Positions 20,381 through 40,158 are shown, numbered from the stretch's first letter. The stretch: 64,000 nt of DNA from Pseudomonadales bacterium (GCA_965221105.1 OZ244871.1:831673-895672); one strand, 5' to 3'. Notes: generated by a model not told the origin, from the letters alone. A program made the numbers and translations.

Positions 20381-21201
20381 TCAGCGCCGCACATCGACCG
20401 TGACATCACACCATTTGGCATAGGCTGGCGCACCGGCCGCCTCCAGCTCTGGCGTGGGCCAGCTGGGCGGGCCGCAATGACGGTCGGTCCGAAAGGTGGC
20501 CCCATAGCCTGCAGCATTGGCAACGAAAGCAAAGCCCGGGGGCGGCGTGGGGTTGTTCAGGTTCCAACAGCGCTGCACATTGGACGCAGCTGCATGACAC
20601 ACCTTGCCCCAGATCCGCACTTTGAAAATGCCGTTGCTCGGGGTCCGGGTCGGGGTGAACGAGTCACCTTGCTGAGTCGGTGTGTTCCCCGTGTATTGGC
20701 CAGTCAGGGGGGTTACATCGTCACTCGCTTCACTGCACCGCGGGTACCCTTTATTGGCGGTGAACGTCCGGCCCATGAAGGTCACGCTGCGCGAGCATTT
20801 GCGGGTCGTATAGGTCTGGCAGGCGATGGCGATGGGCCCGCCGCGGGAATAGGTGCCGGTCGGGTTGTGGAATTCGACCCCTCCGCTGACTCCCGCACTC
20901 TGGGCGCAATGGGAACCGGGTCCCACGCCGAAGGTCGTCCTGTCGTGAGTCATCTCGACCTCGTCTGGATGGTCCGGTGCAGCCTCGATCGTCAGGTTGG
21001 TGACCGCGCCGGACAAGTTCCGGTTGTTCACCGAGGGGGCAGGAAAGACCAGGTTCTGGTTCAGCCCGGTCACATAAGTAGCAGCGGGCTGCGACACCCG
21101 TGAAAATCTGGCCGCCCGTTCTACCTGTGCCGATGCCGGCAGGGCAAGGACTGTCAGCAGGACGGCGGCGCACGCCTTAGGAAAGAGTCGGGGGGGGGCA
21201 T
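20381..21201 (-). CDS. Cys-rich secreted protein A with poly-C tract after the ATG; out of frame at the current tract length
   Basis: ATG at 21201 is followed by C9. One extra C gives MPPPRLFPKACAAVLLTVLALPASAQ.. in frame with ORF 20381..21097 (8 Cys). With C9 there is a stop after 15 codons. Confidence 0.6.
21190..21198. repeat. homopolymer G9 (+ strand) / C9 (coding strand)
   Basis: Counted directly in the sequence. Confidence 0.95.
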
Positions 21202-21300
21202 GTCATGCATTGTTGGTCCACGGGGCAGATACCTTCTTGAGTGCAGTAAAAAAGCTTGAGTGATACGTCAACCAGTTGTACCGCCACAAAAATGATGGGA

Positions 21301-21327
21301 TTTATAAAAGGAAAGGAAGGCTGTCAA
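21301..21327 (-). promoter_or_regulatory. possible promoter reading into secreted-protein gene A (TTGACA-N15-TATAAA)
   Basis: The -35 TTGACA is the inner end of the right inverted repeat. The spacer is only 15 nt, so this is a weak call. Confidence 0.35.
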
Positions 21328-21345
21328 CTTTCCTATGTAATTCCC
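21322..21345 (-). repeat. right arm of 24-bp inverted repeat
   Basis: Reverse complement is GGGAATTACATAGGAAAGTTGACA. Pairs with 19222..19245. Confidence 0.8.
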
Positions 21346-21346
21346 T

Positions 21347-21371
21347 AAAAAACCCGCAGCCGGGGCCGCGG
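21347..21371 (-). terminator. Rho-independent terminator about 90 nt downstream of 16S rRNA
   Basis: Minus strand CCGCGGCC-CC-GGCTGCGG followed by GTTTTTT. Confidence 0.7.
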
Positions 21372-21457
21372 TTGTTGTGTCTGCGAAGACGACCCTCGCT
21401 TACAATCCGATCAAAACAATGCGTGTGGATGCTTGACTGAGAGTCAGGTATTTCGTT

Positions 21458-22981
<1,524 letters not shown>

Positions 22982-23190
22982 TCTTTTACCTCTTCTCAAG
23001 AGAAAGAGGAGACCGTGTTGCAGAGACCCTGCATACGATCCAAAAACCCGGCCAAACGCCAATTTGAACCTAAATAAAATCAAGGCCAAATCTGATGGCC
23101 ATTAATTCGGAATGAATTGATGGATATCTTGCGTTTGATATCGTGTATACCACAACAGCTCAGCAAGCACCCACACGCATTGCTTGATCA

Positions 23191-23205
23191 GATTGTTAAA
23201 GAACA
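23191..23205 (-). promoter_or_regulatory. boxA antitermination element in 16S leader
   Basis: Minus strand TGTTCTTTAACAATC. Confidence 0.6.
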
Positions 23206-23255
23206 TTCGCTGTGCAGCTGTTCAGTCGGACGACTGCGCTGTGCGAGGGGTGCGT

Positions 23256-23283
23256 ATTCTAATGATTCGCAAACCTGAGTCAA
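23256..23283 (-). promoter_or_regulatory. rRNA promoter (TTGACT-N16-TAGAAT plus GC-rich discriminator)
   Basis: Minus strand TTGACTCAGGTTTGCGAATCATTAGAATACGCACCCC, about 275 nt upstream of 16S. Confidence 0.6.
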
Positions 23284-23451
23284 CCACATTCTGAATGTTT
23301 TTGGTGCGTCCCGGCGGAAGCCCACACTGCCCTGCCAGCCCCTGCTTTCGCAGCTCAACGCAAAGCGGGTACATTCGAGTGCCCGGACTTTTGATGTCGA
23401 CCTGAGTTTTTCCGATGTCAAAACCAGGCGTGGTCCCGACCACATTGCGGT

Positions 23452-24174
23452 TCAAACACCCAACCTTTCCTCAAGAAAATTCCAGGCTGCCTGAAAGGCA
23501 CGCGTGCTGGCCGTCTCGTTGTAGATGGTACCCAGTACCGGGTCATGTGCCCCGGGGTTGGTGAACGCGTGCTGCGTGCCTCCATAGGCATGGATTTGCC
23601 AGTCGGCTTCAGCCTCAGTCAGTTCAGCTCCCAGTGCCACCATTGACTCGGGCGGAACCATTGGGTCGTCGTAGCCGTGCAGCGCGAGAATACTCGCCCT
23701 GACCGGCGGGTTGCATCCACTCTCGGGCGGCATGAACAGACCATGGAAGCTGACGACAGCTGCAAGCCGGGCACCGCTTCGGGCAAGGTCCAGCACACAG
23801 AGCCCGCCAAAGCAAAAACCAACCGCCGCGAGCCTGGATGCGTCCACTTCAGCCTGGCCGCTACATGTTTCCAGTGCCAGTGTGATGCGAGTCAGCAATT
23901 CTCCCCTGTCATCGAGCAGAGGCTGCATTAACCCGGCGTTCTCTTCCGCACTGCACCCTGTCCTGCCGCCTCCATACATATCTATAGCGAAACCGACATA
24001 TCCCCTTTCGGCAAGTCTATGGGCTGCATTTTTCTCAAGCTCGCTACAGCCGCCCCAAGCGTGTGCGACAAGAACACCGGGTCTCGGATCCGGATGTGCA
24101 TCGTCCCAGACCATGTAACCGACGAAAGTGTTGTCGCCTGCACTGTAATCGACAGTTCGACTCGAAAGTGTCAT
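23452..24174 (-). CDS. dienelactone hydrolase family protein
   Basis: 240 aa. Nucleophile motif GFCFGG, C-terminal His, and the overall DLH-fold pattern (HAWGG..YVGFAIDMYG). Confidence 0.85.
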   Translation of the reverse strand: MTLSSRTVDYSAGDNTFVGYMVWDDAHPDPRPGVLVAHAWGGCSELEKNAAHRLAERGYVGFAIDMYGGGRTGCSAEENAGLMQPLLDDRGELLTRITLALETCSGQAEVDASRLAAVGFCFGGLCVLDLARSGARLAAVVSFHGLFMPPESGCNPPVRASILALHGYDDPMVPPESMVALGAELTEAEADWQIHAYGGTQHAFTNPGAHDPVLGTIYNETASTRAFQAAWNFLEERLGV

Positions 24175-24227
24175 ATGAGGTCTCCCAATCCATCATGGGG
24201 CGGAGTCCAACCCGTTCCCGCGCCCAA

Positions 24228-25517
24228 CTAGGCTGTAAACAGGTGGTAGCTCTTTTTACCCAATCTTACCAGATAATACCTGCCGTGCCGGGCATTATCC
24301 GGCGCAAAAACCGCGTGCGCATGCATGTTGTCGTTCCAGCTCAGGGAAGCTCCATTCACCTTCATCGCTGCGCCCGTGAGAGCGTCTTTCACCTGTTTGC
24401 CATTTTTGGCAAGCCCGGCTTGGGTGAAGATGGTTGTCAAGGGTGTGGTCCCCAGATCGAAATCAGTCAACACCGAGCACGGCAGGCCATCCTGCCCCAG
24501 TTGCTTGAAATCCTCAACAGACAAGTCATCAGTATTGCCTGAGAACAGCGCATGAGTAATCCTCCGGGCCGCTCTCAGGGCGTCTTCACCATGCACCAGG
24601 CGGGTGACTTCCTCGGCGAGGACACGCTGGGCTTCCGGGCGTCCCTGGCACTTGGCATCCTCGCGCTCCAGGCGATCAATATCGGCGACACCCAGAAAGG
24701 TAAAGTATCTCAGGAACCTGTATACATCGGCATCCGCGGTCTGCAGCCAGAACTGGTAGAAAGCATAGGGCGATGTTTTGGAGGCATCCAGCCAGACAGT
24801 GCCACATTCGGTTTTTCCGAACTTGGACCCGTCCGTTCTGGTGATCAGGGGCATGGTCAGGCCAAACACCCGGGTCCCATGCAGGCGTCTGGTCAGATCA
24901 GTGCCCCCGGTAATGTTGCCCCACTGGTCAGAGCCACCGATCTGCACTGTGCACTGGTACTGGCGAAACAGCTCGGCGAAATCCCATGATTGCAACAGCA
25001 TGTAGGCAAACTCGGTAAAGGATATGCCACTGCCCGCTCTGTCAATGCGCTGTCGCACAGAGTCCTTCTGAATCATTGCATTTACGGAAAAGTGTTTGCC
25101 GACATCCCGCAGAAAATCGAGTACACTGACATGGCCGGTCCAATCAAGATTGTTGACCAGAATTGCGCCCTGTTCAAAATCCACAAAGCGATGTATCTGG
25201 GTTTTCAGCCGGTCACACCGCTGCTGTACAGCCTCCGGTCCCTGAAGTGTGCGCTCGTCAGCCTTGAAGCTGGGGTCGCCAATGAGACCGGTAGATCCGC
25301 CTACCAATACAATGGGGCTGTGCCCGGCCAGCTGAAAGCGCCTGAGCGCCAGCAAAGGTACCAGGCTGCCAATGTGCAGGCTGTCAGCTGTGGGATCGAA
25401 TCCACAGTAGACCGTGCGGGGCACCGTCAGGTGTTCGTCAAGCTCTGCTTCGGCAGTGCGTTGCGCGATCAATCCGCGCTCGTTCAAATCGGCTAAAAGA
25501 GCAGTGTCGATCGTCAT
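24228..25517 (-). CDS. tyrS: tyrosine--tRNA ligase
   Basis: 429 aa. YCGFDPTADSLHIGSL (HIGH region), KFGKT (KMSKS equivalent), and a C-terminal S4-like domain. Confidence 0.95.
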   Translation of the reverse strand: MTIDTALLADLNERGLIAQRTAEAELDEHLTVPRTVYCGFDPTADSLHIGSLVPLLALRRFQLAGHSPIVLVGGSTGLIGDPSFKADERTLQGPEAVQQRCDRLKTQIHRFVDFEQGAILVNNLDWTGHVSVLDFLRDVGKHFSVNAMIQKDSVRQRIDRAGSGISFTEFAYMLLQSWDFAELFRQYQCTVQIGGSDQWGNITGGTDLTRRLHGTRVFGLTMPLITRTDGSKFGKTECGTVWLDASKTSPYAFYQFWLQTADADVYRFLRYFTFLGVADIDRLEREDAKCQGRPEAQRVLAEEVTRLVHGEDALRAARRITHALFSGNTDDLSVEDFKQLGQDGLPCSVLTDFDLGTTPLTTIFTQAGLAKNGKQVKDALTGAAMKVNGASLSWNDNMHAHAVFAPDNARHGRYYLVRLGKKSYHLFTA

Positions 25518-25672
25518 GGATCAGCAAAAGGGGGTAGACAAGGCGGCGTACAATAACCTAAAGTTCAATAAACTCAAGAGCATCGCAGCTTTTTTTAATC
25601 TGATTTAGTGAAATTTTGGTTGGTTTTCCGGCAGTCTTTTTATTACACTTACAGCCACGGGCCATACTGCAG

Positions 25673-27073
25673 ATGCGACGACTCAGATCACAGGCCACGC
25701 GCGCCAGAAAAATTCAAAACCCTTTACTTGAGGGTCTGAAGGCTCCCCACCCCCGAAATTTCCCCTCTGCGCTGCTTCTGACCCCGCTGGCATTGGTGTT
25801 ACTCGCGGTTCTGGGCGGCTTCTTCATGGGTGGCGAATCCACCGTAACGCAGCCCCAATCCCAGGCCCAGAAGGTTCGGACCGCTCCCCTTCCCCTGCGC
25901 CTTGACTCCGACGAACAGGCTGGTGCCACGGAGTCGCCTGCACTGCCCGGGCCCGAGCCCCTGAGTATCACGGTGAGGCGCGGCGACAGCATGTCGCACA
26001 TTTTTGAAAGAGCCGGAATCGGGCCAGGTCTTCTGCATCAGTTGGCCTATGAAAGTGCTCACGGGAAACACTTTCGGAAAATTCTGCCAGGCAAGACGTT
26101 TCTGTTCCACTTCGACGAAAACAATTCCGTCACGCGAATCATCTATGAGGTATCACCTCTGGAGTACTATGAGGCTATTGCCGGAGCACGCGGCTTCACC
26201 ACATCCCACCACCTGCGAACACCGGACATCTATACCACCCTGAGACACGGAGAGATTCACAGCAGTTTTTATCTGGACGGCCTCCGCGCCGGTCTGAATG
26301 ACAACCAGATTATGGAGCTGGCCAGTATTTTCGGCTGGGACATCGATTTTGCCCTGGAAATCAGAGCCGGCGACCAGTTTTCGGTGCTCTACGAGGAAAA
26401 ATTTCTGGGCGGGGAATATCTGGGAACCGGGCGAATTCTGGCAGCCGAATTTATCAATCGGGGCAAGTCCATACGTGCCCTGCGTTATGAAGACCAGTCA
26501 GGAAAGGCCTCGTATTACACGCCCGAAGGCCTGAGCATGCGCAAGGTCTTTCTGCGCACGCCGCTGGATGTGTTCCGCATAAGCTCCCATTTCAACCTCA
26601 AGCGCAAGCACCCGATACTCAACACCATCCGTGCGCACAAAGGCACCGACTACGCAGCTCCGCGAGGCACGCCAATCAAGGCTGCTGGCGATGGCAAGGT
26701 CGTCTTTGCAGGCAGAAACGGCGGCTATGGTAATATGGTAAAAATCTCTCATGGTCAAACCTATGAGACCCGCTACGGCCATCTCAGAGGTTTCGCCACA
26801 GGCATACGGGCTGGAAAGCGGGTACGGCAGGGCCAGATCATCGGGTACGTTGGCAGTACCGGCTTGGCCACAGGGCCCCATCTCCATTACGAGTTCTATG
26901 TGAACGGCTCGGTCAGGAATCCGGTAACGGTCAAACTGCCAAATGGAAAACCAATCAGTGCTTCAGAGCTGCCACTATTCAAGGCCAGCACAGCACCCAT
27001 GCTGACAATGCTTGATGTTCGGTCCAGCAATTACGTTGCACTTGATGACACGCGCGATGCAAACGACTCTTGA
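25673..27073 (+). CDS. M23-family peptidoglycan DD-metalloendopeptidase (OapA/LysM-like N-terminal region)
   Basis: HKGTDYAAPRGTPIKAAGDGKV..YGHL..GSTGLATGPHLHYE is the LytM/M23 catalytic motif. An N-terminal TM segment is present. Start taken at MRRLRSQ. Confidence 0.85.
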   Translation: MRRLRSQATRARKIQNPLLEGLKAPHPRNFPSALLLTPLALVLLAVLGGFFMGGESTVTQPQSQAQKVRTAPLPLRLDSDEQAGATESPALPGPEPLSITVRRGDSMSHIFERAGIGPGLLHQLAYESAHGKHFRKILPGKTFLFHFDENNSVTRIIYEVSPLEYYEAIAGARGFTTSHHLRTPDIYTTLRHGEIHSSFYLDGLRAGLNDNQIMELASIFGWDIDFALEIRAGDQFSVLYEEKFLGGEYLGTGRILAAEFINRGKSIRALRYEDQSGKASYYTPEGLSMRKVFLRTPLDVFRISSHFNLKRKHPILNTIRAHKGTDYAAPRGTPIKAAGDGKVVFAGRNGGYGNMVKISHGQTYETRYGHLRGFATGIRAGKRVRQGQIIGYVGSTGLATGPHLHYEFYVNGSVRNPVTVKLPNGKPISASELPLFKASTAPMLTMLDVRSSNYVALDDTRDANDS

Positions 27074-28194
27074 GCACAGGCACTGATCAGGAAACCTGTA
27101 TCGGACTTATGTCCGGAACCAGCATGGATGCTGTTGACGCAGCTCTGGTTCAGTTCAACGGCCGGTCCCTCAAATTGCTGGCCTACGAGCAATTCCCCAT
27201 AGACACCGCACTCAAGGGCGCGGTGCGCCGTCTGGACGGAAGCAGCCCGGTCTCCGAAGTGACGCGATACGATGCGATGCTTGGCGAACTCTTCGCTGAA
27301 GCTGTCCTGAGAATTCTGGAGATATCCGGATGTCCGGCCGATCAGGTAACGGCCATCGGCAGTCACGGTCAGACGATCCTGCATCTGCCGGAGGAGCCCT
27401 ATCCCCGGACCATGCAGATTGGTGACCCGAACCTGATCGCCCTGAGAACGGGCATTCCCTGCGTGGCTGATTTCAGGCGTATGGATATGGCGGGCGGAGG
27501 TCAGGGGGCTCCCTTGGCACCGGCGTTTCACGAAGACCTGTTCCGCATCGATGGCACGGAGAGAGCAGTCCTCAATATCGGCGGTATTGCCAATCTGACT
27601 CTGCTGCCGGGCAATCCCGATCAGGCTGTTTCCGGGTTTGACTGTGGACCGGGAAATGGCCTTCTGGATGAGTGGAACCGGCGCCATCGGGGAACGGATA
27701 TGGATGTGGACGGAGCCTGGGCGGCTGCGGGCACAGCCGATTCCGAGCTTCTCGAAGCCATGCTCGCAGACCCCTACCTGAACGCGGCACCCCCCAAGAG
27801 TACCGGTCGGGATTACTTTAACCTGGCATGGGTGGAAGACATGATGGCGCGATGCAATACCCGACCTGTACCGGGAGATATTCAGGCAACACTGCTCGAA
27901 CTCAGCGTGCACACCATGGCAAGAGCCGCACGGGACTATTGCCCGGAAGCCCGCTCGGTCTTCCTCTGCGGAGGCGGTGTGCACAATACCCGCATGGTCG
28001 CACGGCTCAGGGAACTGTTGCCCGAAATCACAGTTGCCGACACTGGAGAACTGGGCCTGAATCCCGATGCAGTGGAGGCTGTTGCCTTTGCCTGGCTCGC
28101 CCGGCAGAGGATCAACAGAGCAATGGGCAATCAGCCCTCGGTCACAGGCGCGGACAGGCCGCTGGTTCTGGGCGGACTCTACCAGGCAGGCTGA
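27070..28194 (+). CDS. anmK: anhydro-N-acetylmuramic acid kinase
   Basis: IGLMSGTSMDAVDAAL N-terminus and ..PKSTGRDYFN.. are typical of AnmK. 374 aa. The exact start (TTG or a downstream ATG) is uncertain. Confidence 0.9.
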   Translation: MSTGTDQETCIGLMSGTSMDAVDAALVQFNGRSLKLLAYEQFPIDTALKGAVRRLDGSSPVSEVTRYDAMLGELFAEAVLRILEISGCPADQVTAIGSHGQTILHLPEEPYPRTMQIGDPNLIALRTGIPCVADFRRMDMAGGGQGAPLAPAFHEDLFRIDGTERAVLNIGGIANLTLLPGNPDQAVSGFDCGPGNGLLDEWNRRHRGTDMDVDGAWAAAGTADSELLEAMLADPYLNAAPPKSTGRDYFNLAWVEDMMARCNTRPVPGDIQATLLELSVHTMARAARDYCPEARSVFLCGGGVHNTRMVARLRELLPEITVADTGELGLNPDAVEAVAFAWLARQRINRAMGNQPSVTGADRPLVLGGLYQAG

Positions 28195-28209
28195 GCTGCC
28201 TGGACATCG

Positions 28210-29766: not shown

Positions 29767-29771
29767 GGTGG

Positions 29772-29867: not shown

Positions 29868-29907
29868 TGGTGTAAGCAGTTGAGGTTCTAGAAGCTACAT
29901 TTGCCCA

Positions 29908-30584: not shown

Positions 30585-31199
30585 TGTCTATTTTTGTAGT
30601 TTTTGGGTGTGCAGTGCTCGGTTTCCATGTGTCGCCATACTATGGTGGACACTGTGAGAAATCAGCCATGCATTCACTACCCTTCAGGCACCCAGATTGG
30701 CATCCGGGTTCTCCTCCGCGTGTGTCGACGGCATCACCCAGTTCTCATCACTTCGACCTTTCAGCATCCACGACGAGGCTGACCGCACCCTATACCACGC
30801 CGACATGACCGTGCAGGTCACCGACGTCCTGACCAGATGTGACGTCAGCCCGACCACCATTCACCGGGCGACAGCCAAGCTGCGTATGCGGTATGAGCTG
30901 CCTGAAACGGGTGAAAACCGGCGTATGATCTCCCAAACAATTGAACAGAAAAAGGCCCGAGGTCGGGATGTCTGATGTGCGATCCTTTGAATCGAGGAGT
31001 CTGTTCAGAGCCAGTTGCGCTGTTCTGTAGTTGTTGATTCGTAAGGGTGTGCAGACGCCCTCCACACATACTGTACCCCAGGACAGGGCGGTTTTCGGGC
31101 CGTTTCGGCCCATGGTGCCGTCTCCGGTGCGATTCTCCATCAGGGCCAGGGGCGCAGAGAGCCCCATTGACAGGTCGGATATATGGCAGCAGCCCGTCT

Positions 31200-31444
31200 C
31201 TTCCAGATCGACACAGTGCTCGTGCACACCGGGGCGGGTCATATATGTGTCAGGAGATCGATCAGCGCCTACACTTGAAGTTTCAGCAGAATGTGTCGGG
31301 GTGCTTCAGGAAGCGAGTGCACGCCGCGGCCTACTGTCGGCTCTCCAGCTGCCTGCACAATGGCACACACGGGCTACACGTCCCCGGTAGCGACCCAGAT
31401 GACGGTTGCTGGCCGACCTGCCCCCAAAGGGGGCGAGTAGTTAC
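31200..31444 (+). mobile_element. IS66-family 3' remnant (decayed transposase C-terminus plus right end)
   Basis: ..KFQQNVSGCFRKRVHAAAYCRLSS.. parallels ..KVKQKVSGCFRTLRHAQAHCRISS.. of the 3853..4664 copy. It ends GGGGGCGAGTAGTTAC at 31444. The left limit is approximate. Confidence 0.6.
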
Positions 31445-31473
31445 AGATATTTAGTACATGCCTATGAAATTTT

Positions 31474-31497
31474 GGCAGTGTCTCAGTTCGAAAATCC
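31474..31497 (+). repeat. dispersed 24-nt repeat copy (GGCAGTGTCTCAGTTCGAAAATCC)
   Basis: Read directly. Confidence 0.7.
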
Positions 31498-31660
31498 CGG
31501 TAGTGGTTTTTCTGGAAGATCGTGCATGTCTGCATAAGAGAAGGGCGGCCCGCAGGCCGCCCCGTGCATATGCGGTCTCCGGCTCCCTTGTGGGTCGGCG
31601 GATGCGCACCCCGTTCCTATCATGGACAGGGTCGCGCGGTTCGTTGTGGCCGCAGGGCGG

Positions 31661-32243
31661 TCAGCGGCGGCCGCAGCCCTCGCCAGTCGAGATGAAGGAG
31701 TGGACGGAGGTGAGCTTCTCAGTAAACAGCTTGGGATTGGACCTGACCTCATCAATCTTGAAGGACATCATGCCGCTGCCGATGGCGTTGCCGCCATTGG
31801 GGTCTCGCCCGAAGCCCTTGATCACGGCCCCGGCTTTGGGCCGGATATCCAGGGTCAAGTCCCGGGTCGTAGAGCCGGTTCCAAAACTTATATTCGTTAG
31901 ATTTCCGACATCGGTCCACCCTCTTTCCTCGCGCCGCCATTCAAGCAGGCTTTTTTCATTTACAGGAATAGTGCTAAAAAAGAGGCCAAGAACTCTTGAA
32001 CCAAAGTCTTCGAAGGTGACTTCGGGGTCGGTGGACGACAGGCGCACATGATAGCGCAGGTAGTCGCCGCCGCAGCCTTCCACGTGGTAGCCGTTGATGT
32101 TGCCGGTGACGGACACCGTGCATGTCTGAGCCGTGCAGCGTCTTGACTGCGCCAGCACCGCCGATGGCAGGGCCAGCATCAGGGCCACCAGTGCGACGGC
32201 AAGGGCCGTCAGTCTAGCGGGGGGGGGTCAAAGTTATGGCCAT
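31661..32243 (-). CDS. secreted protein B with poly-C tract in the leader; out of frame at the current tract length
   Basis: ATG at 32243, then GCC ATA ACT TTG A, then C9. With C8 or C11 the leader is MAITLTPP(P)ARLTALAVALVALMLALPSAVLAQ, in frame with ORF 31661..32188 (4 Cys). With C9 there is a TAG after 9 codons. Confidence 0.55.
32219..32227. repeat. homopolymer G9 (+) / C9 (coding strand)
   Basis: Counted directly. Confidence 0.95.
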
Positions 32244-32350
32244 GGCTTAGGTTCTCCATGTAAACGGAAGCTCTAGCTTAACAAAATATGCGACTCGAAA
32301 GCAAGTTCAGACGTCCTGACCTCGTGACCTGATTTCAGGTACATTCGGGG

Positions 32351-32694
32351 TCAATTTCTTCCCCCGTGCCAGTCTGAAGTGCAACACTGGTATGTACCGC
32401 ATGCCTGCTTGATCGAGGACAGGTTGCGGGAGAGTTGTTCGGAAATGTCCTGTTCAGAAAGACCGAAATCTTCTAACGAGTAACGGTGTGCGCCTTGTGA
32501 GTGTTGGTGGTTTTTCTGTCCCATCTGACAATATTTTGTTTCGCTTCACCAGTGAGTTCGTGATAACAAAAGCTGTGCAGTTCTTCCGCCACAGTGTCTG
32601 CAGAATCAGTGAGTTGGGCATAGGGGATATCAAGTATTTTGATGTGCGGATGGTTTTCGCGGAAGTCAGGATGCAGATTGAGTCCGTGGATCAA
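32351..32694 (-). pseudogene. sulfotransferase-family gene remnant with frameshift
   Basis: One frame gives ..HPHIKILDIPYAQLTDSADTVAEELHSFC.. (ORF 32473..32694). A shifted frame continues HRYSLEDFGLSEQDISEQL.., which is the typical C-terminal tail of bacterial sulfotransferases. The N-terminal PAPS-binding part is absent. Confidence 0.45.
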
Positions 32695-32897
32695 CTGGAA
32701 AATCTGATTCTGATAACGGGTGTTTCGTCACATGCCTTATGGTAGCTGGCAACAATACTGCAGAATGAGAGAGTCGAAGCGTTCAAGGTCTTTCCGCGTT
32801 TTTTTATTCCCTGTGTGCTTTTCCGAGCTACGAGGTCGTCCGACAGTACCACCAGGAGCATGCACCAGGTACACCGGGTTCTCTCAGCAGTGTGGCG

Positions 32898-33266
32898 CTA
32901 TATGGAAAAGGAAGCCCCACAACCGCAGGTTGTCGAGGCATTTGGGTTGTTGACAACGAAGCGGGCACCCTCCAGACCCTCCTGGTAGTCCACCGAAGCG
33001 CCAATCAGATATTGAAAGCTCAAGGGGTCCACAAGCACACATATTCCATCTTTCTCAACCAGGGTGTCCTCCTCGTCAGGTGCCTCGTCGAAAGTAAAAC
33101 CATACTGAAACCCTGAGCAGCCACCGCCTGTCACAAAGACCCTGAGCTTCAGGCCGGGATTGCCCTCATCCTCAACCAGCGCCTGCACCTTGCGCACAGC
33201 GCTCGCGGTGATATCCAGCAGTACTGGGTTGGGTTCAAATATCTCCGGTTGGGACATCGCAATCAT
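32898..33266 (-). CDS. erpA: iron-sulfur cluster insertion protein ErpA
   Basis: [14 protein letters not shown] and C-terminal CGCGASFSI. Confidence 0.9.
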
Positions 33267-33316
33267 CCAAGCATCATTATATAAGGTCCAATTGTCTCAT
33301 TAACCGAGTAAATTGA

Positions 33317-33781
33317 TCAAGAATTCGCCGTATCCTGCCGCCCGTGTCCTGCTGACCACTCCTGGGGCTCGGCCGCAGGCGTCGCCGTAGTGGCCTGCTT
33401 GTCTGTTGCACGGGCAGCAGGTGGTGTGTGAACCATATTGCCGTTGATCTGCGCGCCCTGTTCCACCTCGAGCAGATTGTAGTGCAGATTGCCATCGATC
33501 ACTGCATCAGAGGCGAGAATCAGTTGACCACTGGTATGAACATTGCCGACCACATGGCCATTGATAACAGCATCAGGAGAACGGATGTCTCCCTTGATCT
33601 TTCCGTCGACGGCAATCCGAACCACGGAGTCCTTCTCATTGTCTGCATGGATATCTCCGGCGATCACGCCTTCAACGGTCAATACGCCGGTGAATCTGAC
33701 CGTTCCCTCAATCACTGTATTGCGGGAAACGAGTGTCTCAACTCCCCGTGCGCCGCTGGAGGCACTTTTTGATCCGAACAT
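33317..33781 (-). CDS. bactofilin-family polymer-forming protein
   Basis: 154 aa of repetitive beta-helix pattern (V.G.V.F.G.L.V.G.I.GDI...), typical of bactofilin/CcmA. Confidence 0.85.
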   Translation of the reverse strand: MFGSKSASSGARGVETLVSRNTVIEGTVRFTGVLTVEGVIAGDIHADNEKDSVVRIAVDGKIKGDIRSPDAVINGHVVGNVHTSGQLILASDAVIDGNLHYNLLEVEQGAQINGNMVHTPPAARATDKQATTATPAAEPQEWSAGHGRQDTANS

Positions 33782-33806
33782 TGTTCCGGTCCCTCACATT
33801 GTACGA

Positions 33807-34538
33807 TTACGATTTCCACGCATAGGTTTCGTCCAGACTTGGCGAATTGCTTCCGTCCAGGCGGACGATGACGCGGACCTTGCTGGGGCTGAACCCTTCC
33901 GGTAAAACCAGATCACCGTTGAATTGCTGAAAAAACTTGAATCCCAGCGCCAAAAAATCCCCGCCCTGGCTCAGCTCACCGAGTGAAACCGCTCGGGCTG
34001 CGCCGGCATCTGCATCCGAGATCAGCTGCAGACTCATCGTGCCGCTGACTTTGCGGTGGTTCGATGAGCGTTGTGCAACAATGATGTTGTACAAGTAGGC
34101 TCCATCTGTCTCCGCGGGTTCAATATCCACTCTCTCGAGGTACACGCCGCTCTTTTCCGGATCGGGATCCATGAGCGACTGATAGAGGCGAACCTGTTCG
34201 CTCAGAAAATCTATCTGCTCACGCGCCTGCATCATCTGGATACGCATCTGCTCGACGGAACCCCTATCAACCTCAGACGCCAGCTCAGCATTTGTTGCAG
34301 CCTGCGCCAGACTGATCAGCTCTTCATTCAGGCTCTGCATCTGGGCAGTTTGTCGATCAAAGCTTTCTGTCAGGTCACGATGTTGCTCACCCAAGTGCCA
34401 GACTGTGCCCACATAGGTGATCAACGGCAGCACCAGAATGACACCGACAATCAGCAGCACCCGCCCGATCCGGGCGGTGCGACTGAGCCTGACCACATAG
34501 GCCCTCTCAGAGTGAATAGTGTTCCTGGGAACTGTCAT
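33807..34538 (-). CDS. membrane-anchored coiled-coil protein (DUF6776-like), conserved neighbour of bactofilin
   Basis: 243 aa with an N-terminal TM (VLLIVGVILVLPLITYV) followed by a coiled coil. The family name is from memory only. Confidence 0.5.
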   Translation of the reverse strand: MTVPRNTIHSERAYVVRLSRTARIGRVLLIVGVILVLPLITYVGTVWHLGEQHRDLTESFDRQTAQMQSLNEELISLAQAATNAELASEVDRGSVEQMRIQMMQAREQIDFLSEQVRLYQSLMDPDPEKSGVYLERVDIEPAETDGAYLYNIIVAQRSSNHRKVSGTMSLQLISDADAGAARAVSLGELSQGGDFLALGFKFFQQFNGDLVLPEGFSPSKVRVIVRLDGSNSPSLDETYAWKS

Positions 34539-34592
34539 GCCAGCTGACTCTACCCTGGTTTCACCTGTTTCCTGAAGAACCGCGCATGGAAT

Positions 34593-35630
34593 CTATGGCA
34601 CAAGGGCCACGGACTCCAGCCCCATGGCTTCGTCCAGTCCGAACATGATATTCATATTCTGGACCGCTTGACCAGAAGCACCTTTGGTCAGATTGTCCAC
34701 AACCGAGGTGATGACCAGCTTGTCTCTCCCCTGTGGCCGACATACCGAAATCCTGCACATATTGGTTCCCCGCACTGACCTCAGGGTCGGCTGCATGCCC
34801 TGAGGGAGTACATCCACAAAGGGCTCGTGTGCATAATCACGCTCAAACAGCGCCTGAAAATCGGTCGCGTCCGGTTCCGGCAGATCCGCATATATGGTCG
34901 CCAGTATCCCTCTGTTCACCGGCAGGAGATGGGGTACAAAGGTGATGTGCACTGGTCGGTCCGCAACCCGTTCCAGATACTGCTCTATCTCGGGAAGATG
35001 TCTGTGCCCGTCTACCGCATAGGCTTGAAAGCTGTCGCCAACCTCGGCATACAGATTATGTATTGTCGCCTGCCTGCCGGCACCTGAGGTGCCCGAGGCC
35101 GCGTTGGCAACCAGTGTCAGGGGATTGACCATGCCCGGCTCCCTCAGCAGGGGAGCAAGGCCGAGCAGGATGCTGGTCGGATAACAGCCGGGGCAGGCTA
35201 CCAGACGTGCGTCCGCAATCTGCTGCCTGTTGAGTTCCGGCAGACCATACACTGCCTCGGCGACCAACCCAGGGCTTGCGTGCGTCTGCGCATACCAGTG
35301 TTCCCAAACACCTCTGTCCCGAAGCCTGAAATCAGCCGAGAGGTCAATTGCGCGGACACCCGACTCCAGTACTTGTGGCATCTGCGCCTGAGCAATACCA
35401 TGGGGTGTGGCAAAAAACACCAGATCTATCCCGGCATAACCGATATCCTCTGGGACACACAGCTCCAGATCGAAATGCCCCCGCAGACTTGGGAACAGGT
35501 CCGCTACAGATCGCCCATTTTCGGTGCGCGAACTGATGGCCTGAACATCGGCTTCGGGATGCCGGGCCAGCAGTCTCAGCAGCTCCACACCGGTGTACCC
35601 GGTGCCGCCGATAATTGCTATCTTGATCAA
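34593..35630 (-). CDS. argC: N-acetyl-gamma-glutamyl-phosphate reductase
   Basis: [16 protein letters not shown].., active-site ..PGCYPT... Confidence 0.95.
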
Positions 35631-35767
35631 GTTCTATCCGCCTGTCTGCTGTCGGTGGAACGCAATGATAAAAGCCTTCACGGGAATAACAAAGTGCTCC
35701 AACCTGCTAGAATGACACCGGTTCACCCAGGCTCACCACTGAATCCGGCACAGTAATTGATAGTTCG

Positions 35768-36193
35768 ATGGCTTTTCTATGGTTCAAGGCCCTCCACATA
35801 GTGGCTTTTGTCTGCTGGTTCGCAGCTCTTTTCTACCTGCCCAGGCTGTTTGTCTACCATGCAGGCACTGAGGATCCAATCAGCGACGAGCGCTTCAAAT
35901 TGATGGAACGCAGACTCTACCGGGGTATAGGCACCCCGGCCATGATCGCCACCCTCATCTTTGGCCTGGCGATGCTGGTATCCAATACCGACTATCTCAT
36001 GCAAGGCTGGATGCAGGCCAAACTCGCCCTGGTGGCGGCGCTGGTCACCTATCACCTGATGTGCGGATGTCACCTCGCGAAATTTGCACACAACCAGAAC
36101 GTGAAAGACCACATCTATTTCCGCTGGTTCAACGAAGTCCCCACCGTTGCTCTGCTGGCAATTGTGTTCTTTGCCACACTCAGACCTTTCTGA
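35768..36193 (+). CDS. hemJ: protoporphyrinogen oxidase HemJ
   Basis: 141 aa. [27 protein letters not shown] matches the HemJ/UPF0093 signature. Confidence 0.8.
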
Positions 36194-36210
36194 CCCAATC
36201 TGGATCCACG

Positions 36211-37497
36211 ATGAGCCAATCGCAGCACTTGTTTGACCGGGCCAAACAGTCCATTCCCGGCGGAGTGAACTCGCCGGTGCGGGCTTTCCAGGCAGTTGGT
36301 GGAACACCACTGTTCATCGAACGAGCCCGGGGAGCTCATCTCTATGATTGCAGTGGCAACAAATATCTGGACTATGTGCTTTCCTGGGGCCCCATGATCC
36401 TTGGTCACGCCCACCCGGAGGTGATTGAAGCAGTGACCGAAGCTGCCAGATCGGGACTGAGTTACGGAGCACCGACCCGGATTGAAACCTTGCTGGCCGA
36501 GGAAGTCTGCACACTGGTTCCCGGCATTGAGTTGCTGCGCATGGTGAATTCGGGTACCGAAGCGACCATGAGTGCACTTCGGCTGGCGCGTGGCTTCACC
36601 GGAAGGAACACGATTATCAAGTTCGAGGGCTGTTATCATGGGCACTCCGACTCGTTGCTGGTTAAGGCTGGCTCGGGTGCGCTGACCTTGGGAGTACCCA
36701 GTTCCCCGGGCGTTCCCGAGAGTCTGGTGCAGCACACCATGACACTCACCTACAACGACAGCGGGTCCGTCGAAGACGCTTTTTCAGCCCGTGGGGAAGA
36801 GATCGCCTGTGTCATTGTTGAACCGGTTGCGGGCAATATGAACTGTATTCCTCCGGAATCCGGCTTTCTGGAGTGCCTGAGAGAACAGTGCACCCGCTAT
36901 GGTTCAGTCCTGATTTTTGACGAGGTCATGACCGGGTTCAGGGTCGCTCTTGGCGGTGCCCAAGCGAAATATGGCGTTGTGCCCGACCTGACCTGCCTGG
37001 GCAAAGTGGTTGGCGGCGGCATGCCGGTTGGTGCCTTTGGTGGACGACGGGACATCATGGAATATATTTCGCCCCTGGGACCCGTGTATCAGGCGGGCAC
37101 ACTGTCTGGCAATCCGGTCGCCATGGCTGCCGGTCTCAAGACACTCCAGCTCATTCAGGAGGCCGGATTTTACGGGAGTCTGGAAGAGAAGGTGTCATAC
37201 CTGACCAAGGGCTTGCGCACCATAGCCTCGGGCAGGGGCATTCCGCTGACCACCAACCAGTCCGGCAGCATGTTCGGATTCTTTTTTACCAAGGCTGAAC
37301 AGGTGACGCGCTATTCACAGGTCATGGACTGCGACACCGAGCAGTTCGTACACTTCTTCCAGAGCATGCTCAATGCCGGAGTCTACCTGGCTCCCGCCGC
37401 CTTTGAAGCCGGGTTCATGTCAGCGGCCCATTCCACGGCCGATCTGGATTACACCCTTGAGCAGGCGGATGCGGCGCTGCGGTCGCTGAATCGATAA
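36211..37497 (+). CDS. hemL: glutamate-1-semialdehyde 2,1-aminomutase
   Basis: [26 protein letters not shown].. and ..[17 protein letters not shown]... Start set at the ATG at 36211, not at the longer ORF start. Confidence 0.95.
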
Positions 37498-37500
37498 GTG

Positions 37501-38499
37501 ATGGCGTACGACATTCTGGGCATAGGCGCGGCCCTCGTGGACACCGAAATACTGGTTGACGACGAGGATCTGAACAACCTCAAGATCGACAAGGGTTTGA
37601 TGACACTCTGTGATGAAGCCCAGCAGGGACGCTATCTGCGCTACCTGCGAGAGCATATTGATCGGGCTCACAGAGCCTGTGGAGGGTCCGCTGCAAATTC
37701 AATGATAGCCTCCAGCCTGCTCGGGTGCAGGGTACACCTGACCTGCCAGGTGGCAGACGATTCCGACGGGAGGTTCTTCCTGCACGATCTGGGACATGCG
37801 GGTGTGTCATGCAACAGCAGGCATCAGGCGAGACCAGGTGTCACCGGGAAATGCCTCGTGATGGTGACTCCGGACGCGGAGCGAACCATGAATACCGCAC
37901 TCTGTATCAGCGAAACACTGTCCACCAGAAACATAGAACCGGACATTTTTGAGAATGCCGGCTATCTGTATCTGGAGGGGTATCTGGCGACATCGACAAG
38001 CTGCATGGACGCGGCCATCTCCATGCGGGAACAGGCGCGCCAGAATGGTGCCGCTGTCAGTATCAGTCTGTCTGATCCCGGAATCGCGAAACATTTCGAA
38101 CCGGAGTTACGTGCAATGATCGGCGGTCGGGCAGATCTGATATTCTGTAATGCACATGAGGCCATGCAGTGGACACACACCGACAGCATCAGCGACGCGG
38201 CTGAGAAGCTGAAAGAGGACACCCGCACCTACGCCATTACGCTGGGCCCGGACGGAGCCTTGGTCTTTGATGGATCCGAGGCATGCCGAGTCGATTCACC
38301 GAGAGTCGAGGCCATCGATACGAACGGTGCCGGTGACATGTTTGCCGGAACTTTTCTTGCAGCCATCTGCCAGGGGAAGAACTTCGCCGAAGCGGCAGCA
38401 CTGGCCTGCCAGGGCGCTGCGCAGGTTGTATCACGGATGGGTCCAAGGCTTGACAGCGACGGCTACGGGCTCATACGTGGCGCGCTTCAGTCCGGTTGA
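37501..38499 (+). CDS. PfkB-family kinase (adenosine kinase-like)
   Basis: YDILGIGAALVDTE N-terminus and C-terminal DTNGAGDMFAGTFL (PfkB signature 2). Confidence 0.8.
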   Translation: MAYDILGIGAALVDTEILVDDEDLNNLKIDKGLMTLCDEAQQGRYLRYLREHIDRAHRACGGSAANSMIASSLLGCRVHLTCQVADDSDGRFFLHDLGHAGVSCNSRHQARPGVTGKCLVMVTPDAERTMNTALCISETLSTRNIEPDIFENAGYLYLEGYLATSTSCMDAAISMREQARQNGAAVSISLSDPGIAKHFEPELRAMIGGRADLIFCNAHEAMQWTHTDSISDAAEKLKEDTRTYAITLGPDGALVFDGSEACRVDSPRVEAIDTNGAGDMFAGTFLAAICQGKNFAEAAALACQGAAQVVSRMGPRLDSDGYGLIRGALQSG

Positions 38500-38507
38500 G
38501 ACCGGAG

Positions 38508-38939
38508 CTATCTCTGCTCAACCCGTGCCGACACCTGCTGAAGACTGCCATCATCGAACTCGAGGATCAGGTCCATCTGGCCGGAGCGGATCGCGGCGGG
38601 TTCGGGATCAAACAGCATCAGGTGGAGACCTCCCTCGGTAAACAGGACGGCTTCCCCGGCGGGCAACGCTACCGACTCCATCTCCACCATGCGCATCATG
38701 GTGTCTTCCATGACATGTGTGTGCATTTCAATCCGGCTCGCAGAACCGGACTTTACTCCAACGAGCGCCCGAGCATCGGACCCCCCGTTGCTGAGCAGGA
38801 AATAACCTGCGCTGATCGATTGGCCCGGGATGGGCGCAACGATCCGGGCATCGCTGACGCGAATCTCCGCGAACACAAGGGCTGGCAGCACAAGGAGGAG
38901 GAGGGCTGGAATAATTTTCAATTGGGTGTCCTCAGACAT
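38508..38939 (-). CDS. periplasmic copper chaperone PCu(A)C
   Basis: Signal peptide plus ..IEMHTHVMEDTMMRMVEM..GGLHLMLF.., the H(M)X10MX21HXM-type motif of DUF461/PCuAC. Confidence 0.8.
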   Translation of the reverse strand: MSEDTQLKIIPALLLLVLPALVFAEIRVSDARIVAPIPGQSISAGYFLLSNGGSDARALVGVKSGSASRIEMHTHVMEDTMMRMVEMESVALPAGEAVLFTEGGLHLMLFDPEPAAIRSGQMDLILEFDDGSLQQVSARVEQR

Positions 38940-38979
38940 TCAGCAATGATTATTATAGGGTACTCTGCATACACAACCT

Positions 38980-39443
38980 GTAACTGCTCGCCCCCCTTGA
39001 GATCATAGGAAAGAGGTTCTCTGGTGTGTGCATTTCATGAGTGCACAGGGTCATGGGCACCACACAGTTCAGTTCCAAGGCGACGGCGGGGGTGTGTCAG
39101 GCGCTGATGCCGCCGGCGATCATGGCGGTGGAGTCCGGGTAGCCCATGGCGACGGTCAACACAGCATCGCTGCGCTCGGAGTTCGACGCGCTCAAGGGGC
39201 GCTTCGAGACGCTGTGCGCGGACGCCCACGACCACGTCTGGGCCAAGCGCTTGGGCCACCTCCTGAGCGGAACCTGCCGAAGGGTCAGTGAACTCGGCAC
39301 CAAGGCCCTCGACGAGGCCCACTGCCGAATCTCAAGCTACCCAATCCATGGCCCACCAAGGCTACAATTTGCTGACCGCCATCCAGATCGCACTCAGCAC
39401 CGCCGCCACAATGATCAAGCGGGAGAAGGGGGCAAGCAGTTAC
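38980..39443 (+). mobile_element. IS66-family miniature deletion derivative (about 0.46 kb)
   Basis: Left end GTAACTGCTCGCCCCCC.. is near-identical to the reverse complement of 4600..4664. Right end is GGGGGCAAGCAGTTAC. The internal ORF joins the transposase N-terminal part (..KRLGHLLSGTCRRVSELGTKALDEA) directly to the C-terminal tail (HCRISSY..QGYNLLTAIQIAL). Confidence 0.75.
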
Positions 39444-39555
39444 GCTGGATCATTGATCGCGGTCGTTGCACCAGCTTTCTACCTGCTGTTTTGTGGAGCC
39501 GTATCGCCGTCTGCAGAGGAAATCTGGGCACTTGCACAACAGAAGTCATCAGCGA

Positions 39556-40158
39556 TCAGAAGCTGCCGCAAGTTCCAGTTCCAGTTCCCAAGCCCTGGTA
39601 CTTGTTGACCTTGATTTGGGGGGTATCAATCTCCACCCATAGTTGATCTGTTATGCCATAGCCTTTTGGCTGCATCGCCTTGAACGTGCCTGAACCTGCG
39701 GTCGACATAGTCGACGTCCAGTAGACGTTCCCAATATGATCTTCGCCAGCCTCAACAGTGACGCCGCGGAAGACGTTGGTAGGATTTCCATTGAAGTCCG
39801 TGTATCTCATGGCCGGGTATCCATTGACATCTTTGGCGATGAGCCACGCGCTAATATTTTCTGACCCAGGAGTAGGATTTCCTTCATCATCCAAAGTTGT
39901 TGTACCATACGAGATAGATGCAACACCATTCATTCCGTCTGCGTTCACAGTAGCTTTGATACAGACGCGCTGGCCCCAATCCTCTATCGCCTGCGATTCG
40001 TTCCTGGCAACCGCGGTGGTGTCAACATTCTTAAAAAAATCCTGCGCCGTTTGCGCCATTACTGCAGTTAGCGGAGACAGCATCAATGCCGCAAGCGCGA
40101 TGGCGGGTGCCGTCAGTCGTTTACGGGGGGGGGGGGGTAATTTGCTTATTGTGTTCAT
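39556..40158 (-). CDS. secreted protein C with poly-C(13) tract in the leader; in frame (ON)
   Basis: MNTISKLPPPPRKRLTAPAIALAALMLSPLTAVMAQ (Sec-type signal peptide, AXA site) followed by a 164-aa mature part with 2 Cys. The PPPP is encoded by the C13 run. Confidence 0.65.
   Translation of the reverse strand: MNTISKLPPPPRKRLTAPAIALAALMLSPLTAVMAQTAQDFFKNVDTTAVARNESQAIEDWGQRVCIKATVNADGMNGVASISYGTTTLDDEGNPTPGSENISAWLIAKDVNGYPAMRYTDFNGNPTNVFRGVTVEAGEDHIGNVYWTSTMSTAGSGTFKAMQPKGYGITDQLWVEIDTPQIKVNKYQGLGTGTGTCGSF
40125..40137. repeat. homopolymer G13 (+) / C13 (coding strand)
   Basis: Counted directly. Confidence 0.95.

Follow-up and report, generated by a model that had tools for sequence, protein, structure and literature searches.

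The 64,000-nucleotide stretch analysed here (the window) comes from a Pseudomonadales bacterium (GCA_965221105.1, OZ244871.1:831673-895672) and contains three genes, A, B and C, each of which carries a poly-C tract between its start codon and the coding sequence of a signal peptide. The window has a GC content of 56% and includes ordinary chromosomal genes (tyrS, an M23 peptidase gene, anmK, argC, a class-III aminotransferase gene, pfkB and dsbD). Judged by the gene order of Pseudomonas, the grouping of tyrS, the M23 peptidase gene and anmK points to a gammaproteobacterium. The three tracts are the only homopolymers of at least 9 nucleotides (nt) in the 64 kb. All three are poly-C and lie on the minus strand, in agreement with an earlier reading of this DNA that used no database searches (the sequence-only reading) and placed the three genes on the same strand. 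Thirteen of the 14 C7 windows fall inside the three tracts, whereas shuffled sequences are expected to yield ~15, randomly spread, and C/G runs outside the tracts are rarer than in shuffles.

Locus C is in frame (ON). Its ATG (40158-40156, minus strand) opens the pre-tract codons M-N-T-I-S-K-L (40138..40158), whose DNA recurs with one A-to-C change in a conspecific sister genome and in similar form (MNTTSKL) in the related locus L001. The C13 tract (40125..40137) is followed by the leader RKRLTAPAIALAALMLSPLTAVMA (40054..40125; leader profile E=1.2e-6), with cleavage predicted before Q, and by a β-rich cargo of 165 residues that contains two Cys residues and ends with a stop codon (39556..40053). 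The encoded 200-residue precursor is identical to the database protein P0001. Locus B has two starts in different frames (32228..32259, minus strand): ATG 32243-32241 (MAITL), which is preceded by GGAG, and ATG 32259-32257 (MENLSHGHNFD). Its C9 tract (32219..32227) is out of frame with both starts (OFF) and precedes the leader ARLTALAVALVALMLALPSAVLA (32150..32218), also with cleavage predicted before Q, and a cargo of 162 residues with four Cys residues and a stop codon (31661..32149). The 3' arm of the locus contains a terminator-like hairpin on the same strand (31542..31563), and this hairpin (GGGCGGCC..GGCCGCCC) is also found in the right arms of related units in other genomes. The public annotation of this genome starts gene B at an internal Met and thereby loses the leader (P0102). 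Locus A begins with two ATGs in one frame (21210-21208 and 21201-21199) and one in a second frame (21206-21204), all within 21199..21210 on the minus strand. A C9 tract (21190..21198; OFF), which is also the breakpoint of a mosaic described below, leads into the leader RLFPKACAAVLLTVLALPASA (21128..21190; leader profile E=1.7e-6), with cleavage again predicted before Q, and into a cargo of 248 residues with eight conserved Cys residues and a stop codon (20381..21127).

The tract is located 4-8 codons after the ATG and directly before the signal peptide in all three genes. The signal peptides consist of a positively charged n-region, an Ala/Leu-rich h-region and an ..A-x-A|Q cleavage region. 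By inspection, they show the features of Sec export and signal peptidase I processing, namely a positive n-region, a hydrophobic h-region of 10-15 residues and small residues at positions -3 and -1, as in RKRLT-APAIALAALMLSPL-TAVMA|Q, and the +1 Cys of a lipobox is missing. The sequence-only reading had quoted the DNA and peptide strings of B and C correctly and had rightly assigned the same layout to locus A (ATG, tract, R-L-F-P-K-A-C-A-A..ALPASA|Q) with a more diverged leader. Its even Cys counts also hold (8, 4 and 2 in mature A, B and C) and are kept in homologues, but its sizes for the mature domains (about 215, 150 and 164 residues) are replaced by ~248, 162 and 165 residues.

The tracts of C9, C9 and C13 match the homopolymers of ~7 or more in the 5' coding region that characterize contingency loci, and a change in their length shifts the open reading frame (ORF) into or out of frame with the start. 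At locus A, an ON state would need C10 or C7, or C8 or C11 from the second ATG; at locus B, it would need C8 or C11, or C10, C13 or C16 from the upstream ATG. Because a second ATG lies in another frame at both loci, two of the three length classes could be ON, and C9 would be the sole class that is OFF for both starts.

Leader homology and tract-length variation

Loci B and C share nucleotide and peptide homology immediately after the tract, as had been claimed. Anchored at GACTGACGG, the two leaders are identical at 49 of 69 nt, ~8 standard deviations above the window background. When the B leader is compared with all 128,000 window positions on both strands, it gives a mean of 18.2 matches with a standard deviation of 3.9, and the best unrelated position reaches 37/69. 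A leader hidden Markov model (HMM) built from 26 leaders was searched against the six-frame ORFs of 836 kb, comprising the window and 38 related loci, with a cut-off of E<1e-3. It returned 37 matches, which are all tract genes except for one tract-less copy and one N-terminally disrupted copy, and within the window it matched A, B and C only. The excess over background and the near confinement of the HMM to tract genes in the 836 kb argue that the leader similarity is not generic signal-peptide composition.

Profile-profile comparison of the A, B and C families aligns the leaders alone, with probabilities of 95% for B-C, 54% for A-B and 28% for A-C. No mature columns align; the mature domains are thus without mutual similarity, and the family is defined by its leader rather than by the mature protein, both as originally proposed. 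Given the nucleotide match above background, the HMM specificity and the leader-only profile alignment, the leader is, by sequence comparison, a specific homologous element. The A-type leader end CCCTGCCNGCATCGGCACA gave 89 matches in JGI metagenome contigs, of which 0/89 has a tract or an A-type cargo, which suggests that this collection is without the family and that the motif alone is generic. The same pattern has no match in viral contigs.

Genes with the order start codon, poly-C and signal peptide number 37 in the 836 kb, with tracts of 9-27 C. The reading frame is ON in 11/37 and OFF in 26/37, and the cargo ORF is intact in 35/37; the two truncated copies are located in L009 and L010. 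The cargos form 8-10 groups that are unconnected by BLAST (A, B, C, 'D', several singletons and groups that have only a C-terminal G-x-G-C motif in common with B). The family therefore has further members, as the sequence-only reading required. Gene calls that are leaderless because they start at an internal Met are seen here as well (P0102, P0003 and P0008).

Tract length was compared with a sister genome (ctg10134, 2,814,163 bp) that is syntenic with the window and 99.1% identical to positions 21662-39224 (17.6 kb), with a flank identity of 97-99% between the two conspecific genomes. Locus B is C9 and OFF in the window but C16 and ON via the upstream ATG in the sister, whose annotated B protein (P0101) starts at this ATG. 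Locus C is C13 and ON in the window but C18 and OFF in the sister. The tracts are thus polymorphic, as predicted, with opposite ON and OFF states at both loci, and the repeat length differs between close strains while the flanks are conserved, as is characteristic of contingency loci. Judged from these alignments, the loci change length independently and on a very short evolutionary scale. Within clusters of 90% identity, the Pro stub varies between PPP, PPPP, PPPPPP and PPPPPPP, and the gene calls of many members begin at an internal Met, as is typical of a tract that is out of frame.

Several copies depart from the common tract arrangement. Six A-family copies (L021-L027) in a metagenome-assembled genome (MAG) titled Alphaproteobacteria bacterium (OZ244899) have no leader tract of at least 8 nt; their leaders start with MSFHTIRM(F/L)P..., and this lineage seems to have a non-switchable version of the module. 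On the minus strand of L008, a second poly-C run (C11 at ~590 and C10 at 3504, reverse-strand coordinates) lies between a -35-like TTGACC and a -10-like TAGGGAT, ~150 nt upstream of the leader tract, and could, by its position, be a transcriptional switch stacked on the translational one. The leader tract of the second L008 copy is decayed (CCCCCTC). A C19 run is located at the extreme 3' end of an A-family gene in L029 (10730-10748; ..CDVTVDERF-PPPPPP-stop), where a change in length would alter or lengthen the C-terminus. Finally, C11 in L020 (10829) and C8 in L030 (10772) lie outside the leader and precede the start of a long ORF (at least 800 residues) directly 3' of the A-family genes.

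Cassette ends, mosaic structure and cargo

Alignment of the upstream regions extends the conservation beyond the leader to a Shine-Dalgarno and start context (TGGAGGATCC.TCATGA) and a promoter-like stretch. A 22-bp motif, GGTAGTG(G/T)CTC(A/G)GTTTGAAAAT, is located ~80-100 nt upstream of the tract and is found again, inverted, just beyond the terminator hairpin 3' of the same genes. The terminal inverted repeat (TIR) of the full unit is 22 bp long (GGTAGTGKCTCRGTTTGAAAAT). Paired TIRs enclose 986-1066 bp with one cargo ORF and no transposase inside, and TIRs at both left and right ends are present in L005, L010, L011, L013, L015 (two cassettes), L016, L018 and L038. Perfect 8-bp target duplications flank the units of L010 (AGATACCA), L016 (AGCTTTCG) and L018 (CATTCCTG), and the duplication of L013 matches at 7/8 positions. 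In L015 (8883-10884), two cassettes with unrelated cargos are arranged head to tail, 7 bp apart, and an 8-bp duplication (AAAAAAAA) surrounds only the pair, which may move, or may have arisen, as a unit. These units have the hallmarks of non-autonomous transposable elements with a passenger gene, which are known as mobile insertion cassettes. The alternative that they are integron gene cassettes was rejected, as their ends are 22-bp TIRs with 8-bp duplications rather than attC, and no integrase was noted among the listed or scanned neighbours. An 89-bp element in L005 (9772-9860), which holds little beyond two 22-bp inverted repeats, looks like a miniature inverted-repeat transposable element (MITE) form of the cassette.

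Parts of the cassette structure are also observed in the window. The right TIR of locus A (GGTAGTGCCTCAGTTTGAAAAA) occupies 20253..20274 on the plus strand; homology to the A cassettes of other genomes starts at 20252-20254, and the syntenic homology to the sister stops at 20252. The right TIR of locus B (GGCAGTGTCTCAGTTCGAAAAT) lies at 31474..31495 on the plus strand, with its outer end at 31474. Next to cassette A, a fourth cargo gene ('family D') survives as its final ~60 codons with its own right arm and TIR (19958..20252, minus strand; outer end 19958), and this remnant is truncated by the TIR of cassette A. A further cassette-like locus (13578..14259, minus strand) consists of a left TIR and promoter-like arm (14259-14200), nearly identical to the left arms of other genomes' cassettes (GGTAGTGGCTCAGTTTTCAAATCCGTTGTTTTGCCGGTTGAAACTAGTATATTG), followed by an ORF (13578-14168) of up to 196 residues with several Cys residues. 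This ORF is without a poly-C tract or signal peptide and is unmatched in Pfam and PHROG, and the locus could represent a degenerate cassette or one without a leader. Upstream of B, a sequence that matches the TIR at 12/22 positions was too degenerate to be accepted as a left end. Scanning for the sigma-70 consensus gave only a weak promoter candidate at C and no convincing one before A or B. The IS fragments in the window are IS66-like, IS4/Tn5-like and TnpB (IS, insertion sequence); an inverted-repeat search around the IS4/Tn5-like elements gave no informative ends, and the cassette left arm had no match in plasmids.

The cassettes are found in genomes of diverse composition and labelling. 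Family A occurs in 13 MAGs in a scan of one genome per GTDB species, with titles naming Arenicellales, Candidatus Poriferihabitans/Poriferihabitaceae, Candidatus Azotimanducus, Pseudohongiella, Paracoccaceae, Aestuariivita, and Alpha- and Gammaproteobacteria bacterium. In the NCBI taxonomy, Ca. Poriferihabitans belongs to Arenicellales and Ca. Azotimanducus to Pseudomonadales, and Ca. Poriferihabitaceae MAGs have been reported from sponge HiFi metagenomes in the Phakellia ventilabrum genome note (PMC12859430). A host-associated origin, raised in the sequence-only reading, fits these source-organism names, and we infer a sponge association for the window's own organism. Overall, tract genes or homologues of them were seen in MAGs representing more than 13 species. 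The GC content of the loci ranges from 47 to 70% across the related genomes; that of gene A stays within 60-70%, against 46-70% for its flanks. The window resembles those genomes at the nucleotide level (82-88%) only within the gene itself, with the similarity starting at the TIR. One B-family cluster with at least 90% protein identity spans more than 10 assemblies, including MAGs labelled Paracoccaceae, Gammaproteobacteria and Arenicellales. The GC contrast, the gene-confined similarity and the distribution of the B cluster over differently labelled MAGs point to horizontal spread of the cassette genes.

The 5' parts of the cassettes are combined with more than one cargo type. The pre-tract peptide MIRFTPPPP is found on A and B cargos and its variant MIRLTPPPP on a C cargo, and A and B cargos also share MSFHTIR[LM]FPACAA and MKRLMTL. 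In L002, a C-type cargo (78% nucleotide identity to window C) stands behind a B-like leader, which is 73% identical to that of window B (28/33 in the c-region) vs 58% to that of window C. P0131 combines an A-type domain with an RLTAL-type leader.

The most direct case is observed at locus A. The syntenic locus of the sister (L128) is 97.6% identical to the window up to 20252, and position 20253 is the outer base of the right TIR of A. The 5' arm of A is 92-95% identical to both 5' arms in this syntenic locus. A three-way alignment was made of window A, the sister syntenic locus and L038, an A cassette elsewhere in the sister genome. Upstream of the tract, window A matches the syntenic locus (54-56/60 per block) and shows no relationship to L038. 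Beyond the tract, starting with the very next base and continuing through leader, cargo and 3' arm to the TIR, it matches L038, with only weak similarity to the syntenic gene P0042. The change of partner is thus located inside the C run. In the sister, the same 5' arm (..CAACAATGCATGACATG-Cn) is present twice: one copy has C12 followed by an A-type leader and cargo, and the other has C8, in frame, followed by MHDMPPPRARLTAL.. and a D-type cargo. The window keeps the last ~60 codons of the sister's D gene, cut by the TIR of A. In the simplest history, an insertion of cassette A into the D gene would have been followed by deletion of the segment that separated the two tracts. As arranged here, one promoter/start arm can drive unrelated leader-cargo units, and exchange occurs at the tract. 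The shared module is thus larger than the sequence-only reading described: it extends upstream over the promoter, Shine-Dalgarno and start, is carried, in related genomes, in cassettes bounded by TIRs and target duplications, and contains a recombination junction, the tract.

Homologues of all three cargos were found only in NCBI/ENA assemblies of 2.4-4.1 Mb. A, B, C and five other cargos are unmatched in Pfam, NCBIfam and PHROGs, and a profile search of PDB sequences with B gave nothing. The AlphaFold model of C is confident and β-rich, with a predicted local distance difference test (pLDDT) score of 80, which is at least 90 over most of the mature part; the model of A is partial (pLDDT 68). 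Foldseek searches with the C model against PDB and BFVD and with the A model against PDB gave no match at E<0.001, with template modelling scores of at most 0.31. A full HMMER search of 1.84 billion representative proteins with the A profile retrieved just 49 relatives, many of which share only a C-terminal Cys-containing domain of ~85 residues, and several cargo groups that are separate by BLAST share a C-terminal G-x-G-C motif with B. Because even numbers of Cys residues are conserved, the mature proteins are probably disulfide-bonded periplasmic, surface or secreted proteins.

The cargos evolve unlike the chromosomal genes around them. Nonsynonymous (dN) and synonymous (dS) divergence between the two conspecific genomes is 0.0013 and 0.0153 for argC (dN/dS 0.08), 0.0066 and 0.0389 for pfkB (0.17), and 0.0051 and 0.0196 for tyrS (0.26). 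For the C cargo, dN is 0.124 and dS 0.087 (dN/dS 1.42), with 77% amino acid identity and a 3-codon indel after the cleavage site. The B cargo differs by nine amino acid changes and 0 synonymous changes (dN 0.025, dS 0, ratio undefined). This substitution pattern indicates diversifying selection or allele replacement.

Interpretation and comparison with known systems

A, B and C are probably mobile contingency cassettes, that is, members of a superfamily of small expression-and-export units found in uncultured marine Proteobacteria, with sponge-symbiont taxa among the names in the record titles. The full unit, as observed in related genomes, spans ~1 kb and consists of a TIR, a promoter-like stretch, a Shine-Dalgarno sequence, an ATG with 3-8 codons, the poly-C tract, a Sec-type signal peptide ending in ..ALP-x-x-A|Q, a cargo of 150-270 residues, a terminator hairpin and an inverted TIR. 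From this anatomy and the length polymorphism, slipped-strand mispairing is expected to add or remove tract bases. Given the position of the tract, after the start codon and ahead of the signal peptide, an exported protein would result from one of every three length classes, or from two where an ATG is present in a second frame (A and B). Since slippage would set the frame, each locus would switch ON and OFF within a population on its own, with C ON and A and B OFF in the window. The ON product is predicted to carry an N-terminal poly-Pro stub and a leader of the signal-peptidase-I type. The cassettes, which are common to genomes of very different GC content and labelled taxonomy, would insert with 8-bp duplications, presumably by transposition. 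The tract and leader would serve as a joint that fuses a resident promoter/start to another leader-cargo, so that unrelated cargos share one 5' module; the mosaic at locus A is consistent with this mechanism. The cargo would diversify under selection, as for molecules seen by a host, phages or competitors.

A number of observations count against this interpretation. The last six leader residues, LPASAQ, are by themselves common in unrelated bacteria. A fraction of about one-third ON is also expected if expression is independent of frame or if tract length drifts neutrally. The tract lengths and ON/OFF calls are those of consensus assemblies, in which long homopolymers may be off by one; export is assigned from sequence only, with signal peptides identified by inspection; and the taxon labels and sponge origin are those of record titles and taxon names. 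The TIR pairs of L005, L011 and L038 are without target duplications. Recognizable TIRs at the window loci are restricted to right ends at A and B, with no left end at either and none at C. Neither the 836 kb nor a plasmid collection yielded a transposase with matching ends. No clean empty site could be retrieved for a whole cassette: the sister has an intact copy of the D-type gene that the right TIR of window cassette A disrupts, but this insertion site is not a clean one because the left junction has been replaced by the tract-level fusion.

Switching might instead take place at the RNA level, with RNA polymerase or the ribosome slipping on the 9-27 C so that DNA length tunes the level of expression rather than its ON or OFF state. 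Long homopolymers are known to cause transcriptional slippage, the tracts are unusually long (up to 27), and the cargo ORFs stay intact although two-thirds of the copies are out of frame. The conspecific DNA lengths, however, differ by 5-7 nt, so the instability at the DNA level is real, and as the main mechanism a rheostat of this type is unlikely. RNA-level and DNA-level mechanisms are compatible, and RNA slippage is the main rival of DNA-level switching or its complement. The rapid evolution of the cargo (dN/dS above 1), the restriction of remote A relatives to the C-terminal ~85 residues and the G-x-G-C motif shared with B by BLAST-separate groups would also suit a single old paralogous family, in which the mature parts of one ancestor diverged beyond recognition, the 5' end was conserved and no parts were exchanged. 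Such a history is rather improbable in view of the mosaic at locus A with its breakpoint at the tract, the identical 5' arms before A-type and D-type cargos in one genome, the pairing of a C cargo with a B-type leader in L002, and the A, B and C profiles, which are dissimilar outside the leader and have Cys patterns of 8, 4 and 2.

Two simpler accounts fare worse. Decay into pseudogenes or errors of long-read assembly in homopolymers could explain the frameshifts of A and B, and this account gains from the two of three window genes and 26/37 genes overall that are out of frame and from the truncated copies in L009 and L010. We consider it very improbable, as 35/37 genes keep full-length cargo ORFs with conserved Cys residues and motifs, the differences of 5-7 nt exceed a consensus error of about one base, and the tract occupies the same codon position in independent assemblies from several samples. 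That Ala/Leu-rich leaders merely resemble each other by chance or by generic signal-peptide composition in a GC-rich genome, with coincidental tracts, is hardly credible. LPASAQ-type cleavage regions are indeed frequent in unrelated metagenomic contigs, but the similarity lies ~8 standard deviations above background, the HMM finds no other leader in the 836 kb, every homopolymer of at least 9 nt in the window sits at one of these three sites, and the architecture recurs at orthologous positions in dozens of loci.

The mobile contingency cassettes may have a wider role, which we advance tentatively as a proposal that could well prove wrong. The identity of the poly-C tract in all cassettes would let any incoming leader-cargo join any resident promoter/start, so that the tract would be a universal adaptor. 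Combined with TIR-based transposition, this would amount to a community-level contingency system that pools secreted proteins among symbionts of different classes. If the adaptor proposal is true, co-resident symbionts of different classes share exchangeable, stochastically expressed and fast-evolving secreted proteins in a mutualistic or commensal animal microbiome.

As regards mechanism, the parallel that the sequence-only reading drew with contingency loci of the pilC type is apt. Neisseria pilC has a poly-G tract in its signal-peptide coding region, and the opa genes, a multi-copy family whose members switch independently, have CTCTT repeats in the leader. As in pilC and opa, a 5' coding or leader repeat shifts the frame of an exported protein here. 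Those systems involve one homologous cargo family and no cassette with TIRs and target duplications, whereas the cassettes described here place one module before 8-10 unrelated cargos, move between genomes and carry a tract of up to 27 nt before the whole signal peptide. Outer membrane protein (OMP) genes of Helicobacter pylori have CT repeats in the signal-sequence region, and Campylobacter has poly-G contingency genes. Many loci per genome with 5' coding repeats are a common feature of these host-associated systems and the cassettes, but the former have no shared mobile 5' arm, and their cargos are paralogous OMPs or glycosylation enzymes. In the vlp genes of Mycoplasma hyorhinis, a highly conserved 5' region (homopolymer promoter and leader) is joined to divergent mature parts. 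The cassettes likewise have a conserved 5' region before a variable mature part; vlp differs in its promoter poly-A switch, its lipoprotein products and its lack of TIR-bounded cassettes. Bordetella fim has poly-C in the promoter spacer, and the C10-C11 runs between the -35-like and -10-like hexamers of L008 are placed likewise, unlike the window tracts, which are translational and outside the promoter.

The closest parallel for the tract is Gardnerella nanH3, in which a poly-C of 8-14 near the signal-peptide region varies within cultures and automated annotation calls leaderless proteins (bioRxiv 10.1101/2020.09.16.300947). The annotation artefact is the same as that of P0102, P0003 and P0008, but in nanH3, which is a single gene and not a mobile multi-cargo module, the tract follows the signal peptide. 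With regard to mobility, the units resemble mobile insertion cassettes (MICs), in which IS-type inverted repeats flank passenger genes and the transposase is absent, as in Xanthomonas TALE/effector (PMC4337579) and qnrS2 (PMC5444012) cassettes. TIRs, a target-site duplication and a passenger gene without an internal transposase are common to both. The known MICs move effector or resistance genes, and none has been reported to have a built-in slippage switch and export leader or to swap cargo at such a switch. Integron gene cassettes are similar in being small single-gene units with diverse, mostly unknown cargo that sometimes form tandem arrays (compare L015), but they have attC, are promoterless and depend on integrase, in contrast to the TIRs, 8-bp duplications and own promoter-like arm observed here.

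The literature search found no description of a transposable unit with its own promoter, a slippage switch, an export leader and interchangeable cargo. Searches on sponge symbionts and phase variation, and on the taxon names, revealed no account of this system or of contingency loci in bacteria associated with sponges. Phase variation by simple repeats is textbook knowledge for a few dozen pathogens and, to our knowledge, is almost undocumented in environmental bacteria or beneficial symbionts. The present findings suggest that many loci for secreted proteins are turned ON and OFF independently of each other in uncultured marine bacteria that apparently live with sponges, and that a mobile unit carries the switch, along with promoter and export signal, between bacteria that are unrelated. 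They also suggest that the cargos are novel folds under diversifying selection, which would make them prime candidates for recognition by a host, phages or neighbouring bacteria. A systematic annotation error is exposed as well: out-of-frame copies are called leaderless from an internal Met, as in P0102, the B gene of the window.

Genes and repeats around the loci

The surroundings of the three loci differ. The sequence-only reading had placed all three in IS-littered islands; this description fits locus A, which adjoins a TnpB fragment and the cassette remnant, and locus C, which is flanked by IS4/Tn5-like and IS66-like fragments, but does not fit locus B, whose neighbours are ordinary genes. 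The TnpB/IS605 OrfB-like fragment contains a Cas12f1-like TNB domain (19311-19970) and overlaps the outer end of the D-type cassette remnant. At locus C, a block of ~1.07 kb (window 39371-40442 vs L037 9638-10704) is 90% identical between the two conspecific genomes, compared with ~99% for the neighbouring DNA. IS-related sequence, which is not the same in the two genomes, borders this block on either side. The window shows no enrichment of a Neisseria-type uptake sequence, and a Neisseria relative was rejected on that ground.

Toxin-antitoxin-like genes share the variable neighbourhoods of the cassette loci. A Fic-domain protein gene and an adjacent helix-turn-helix gene lie beside locus B (28210-30225), and a HipA-like kinase gene is located near the start of the window (2037-3056). 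Direct and inverted IS-end-like repeats with 82-92% identity are scattered around the cassette loci (9345-9461 and 13385-13504; 3892-4664 vs 38980-39407 and 43082-43209), and one of these segments adjoins the second 5' arm of the sister genome (L128, ~13900).

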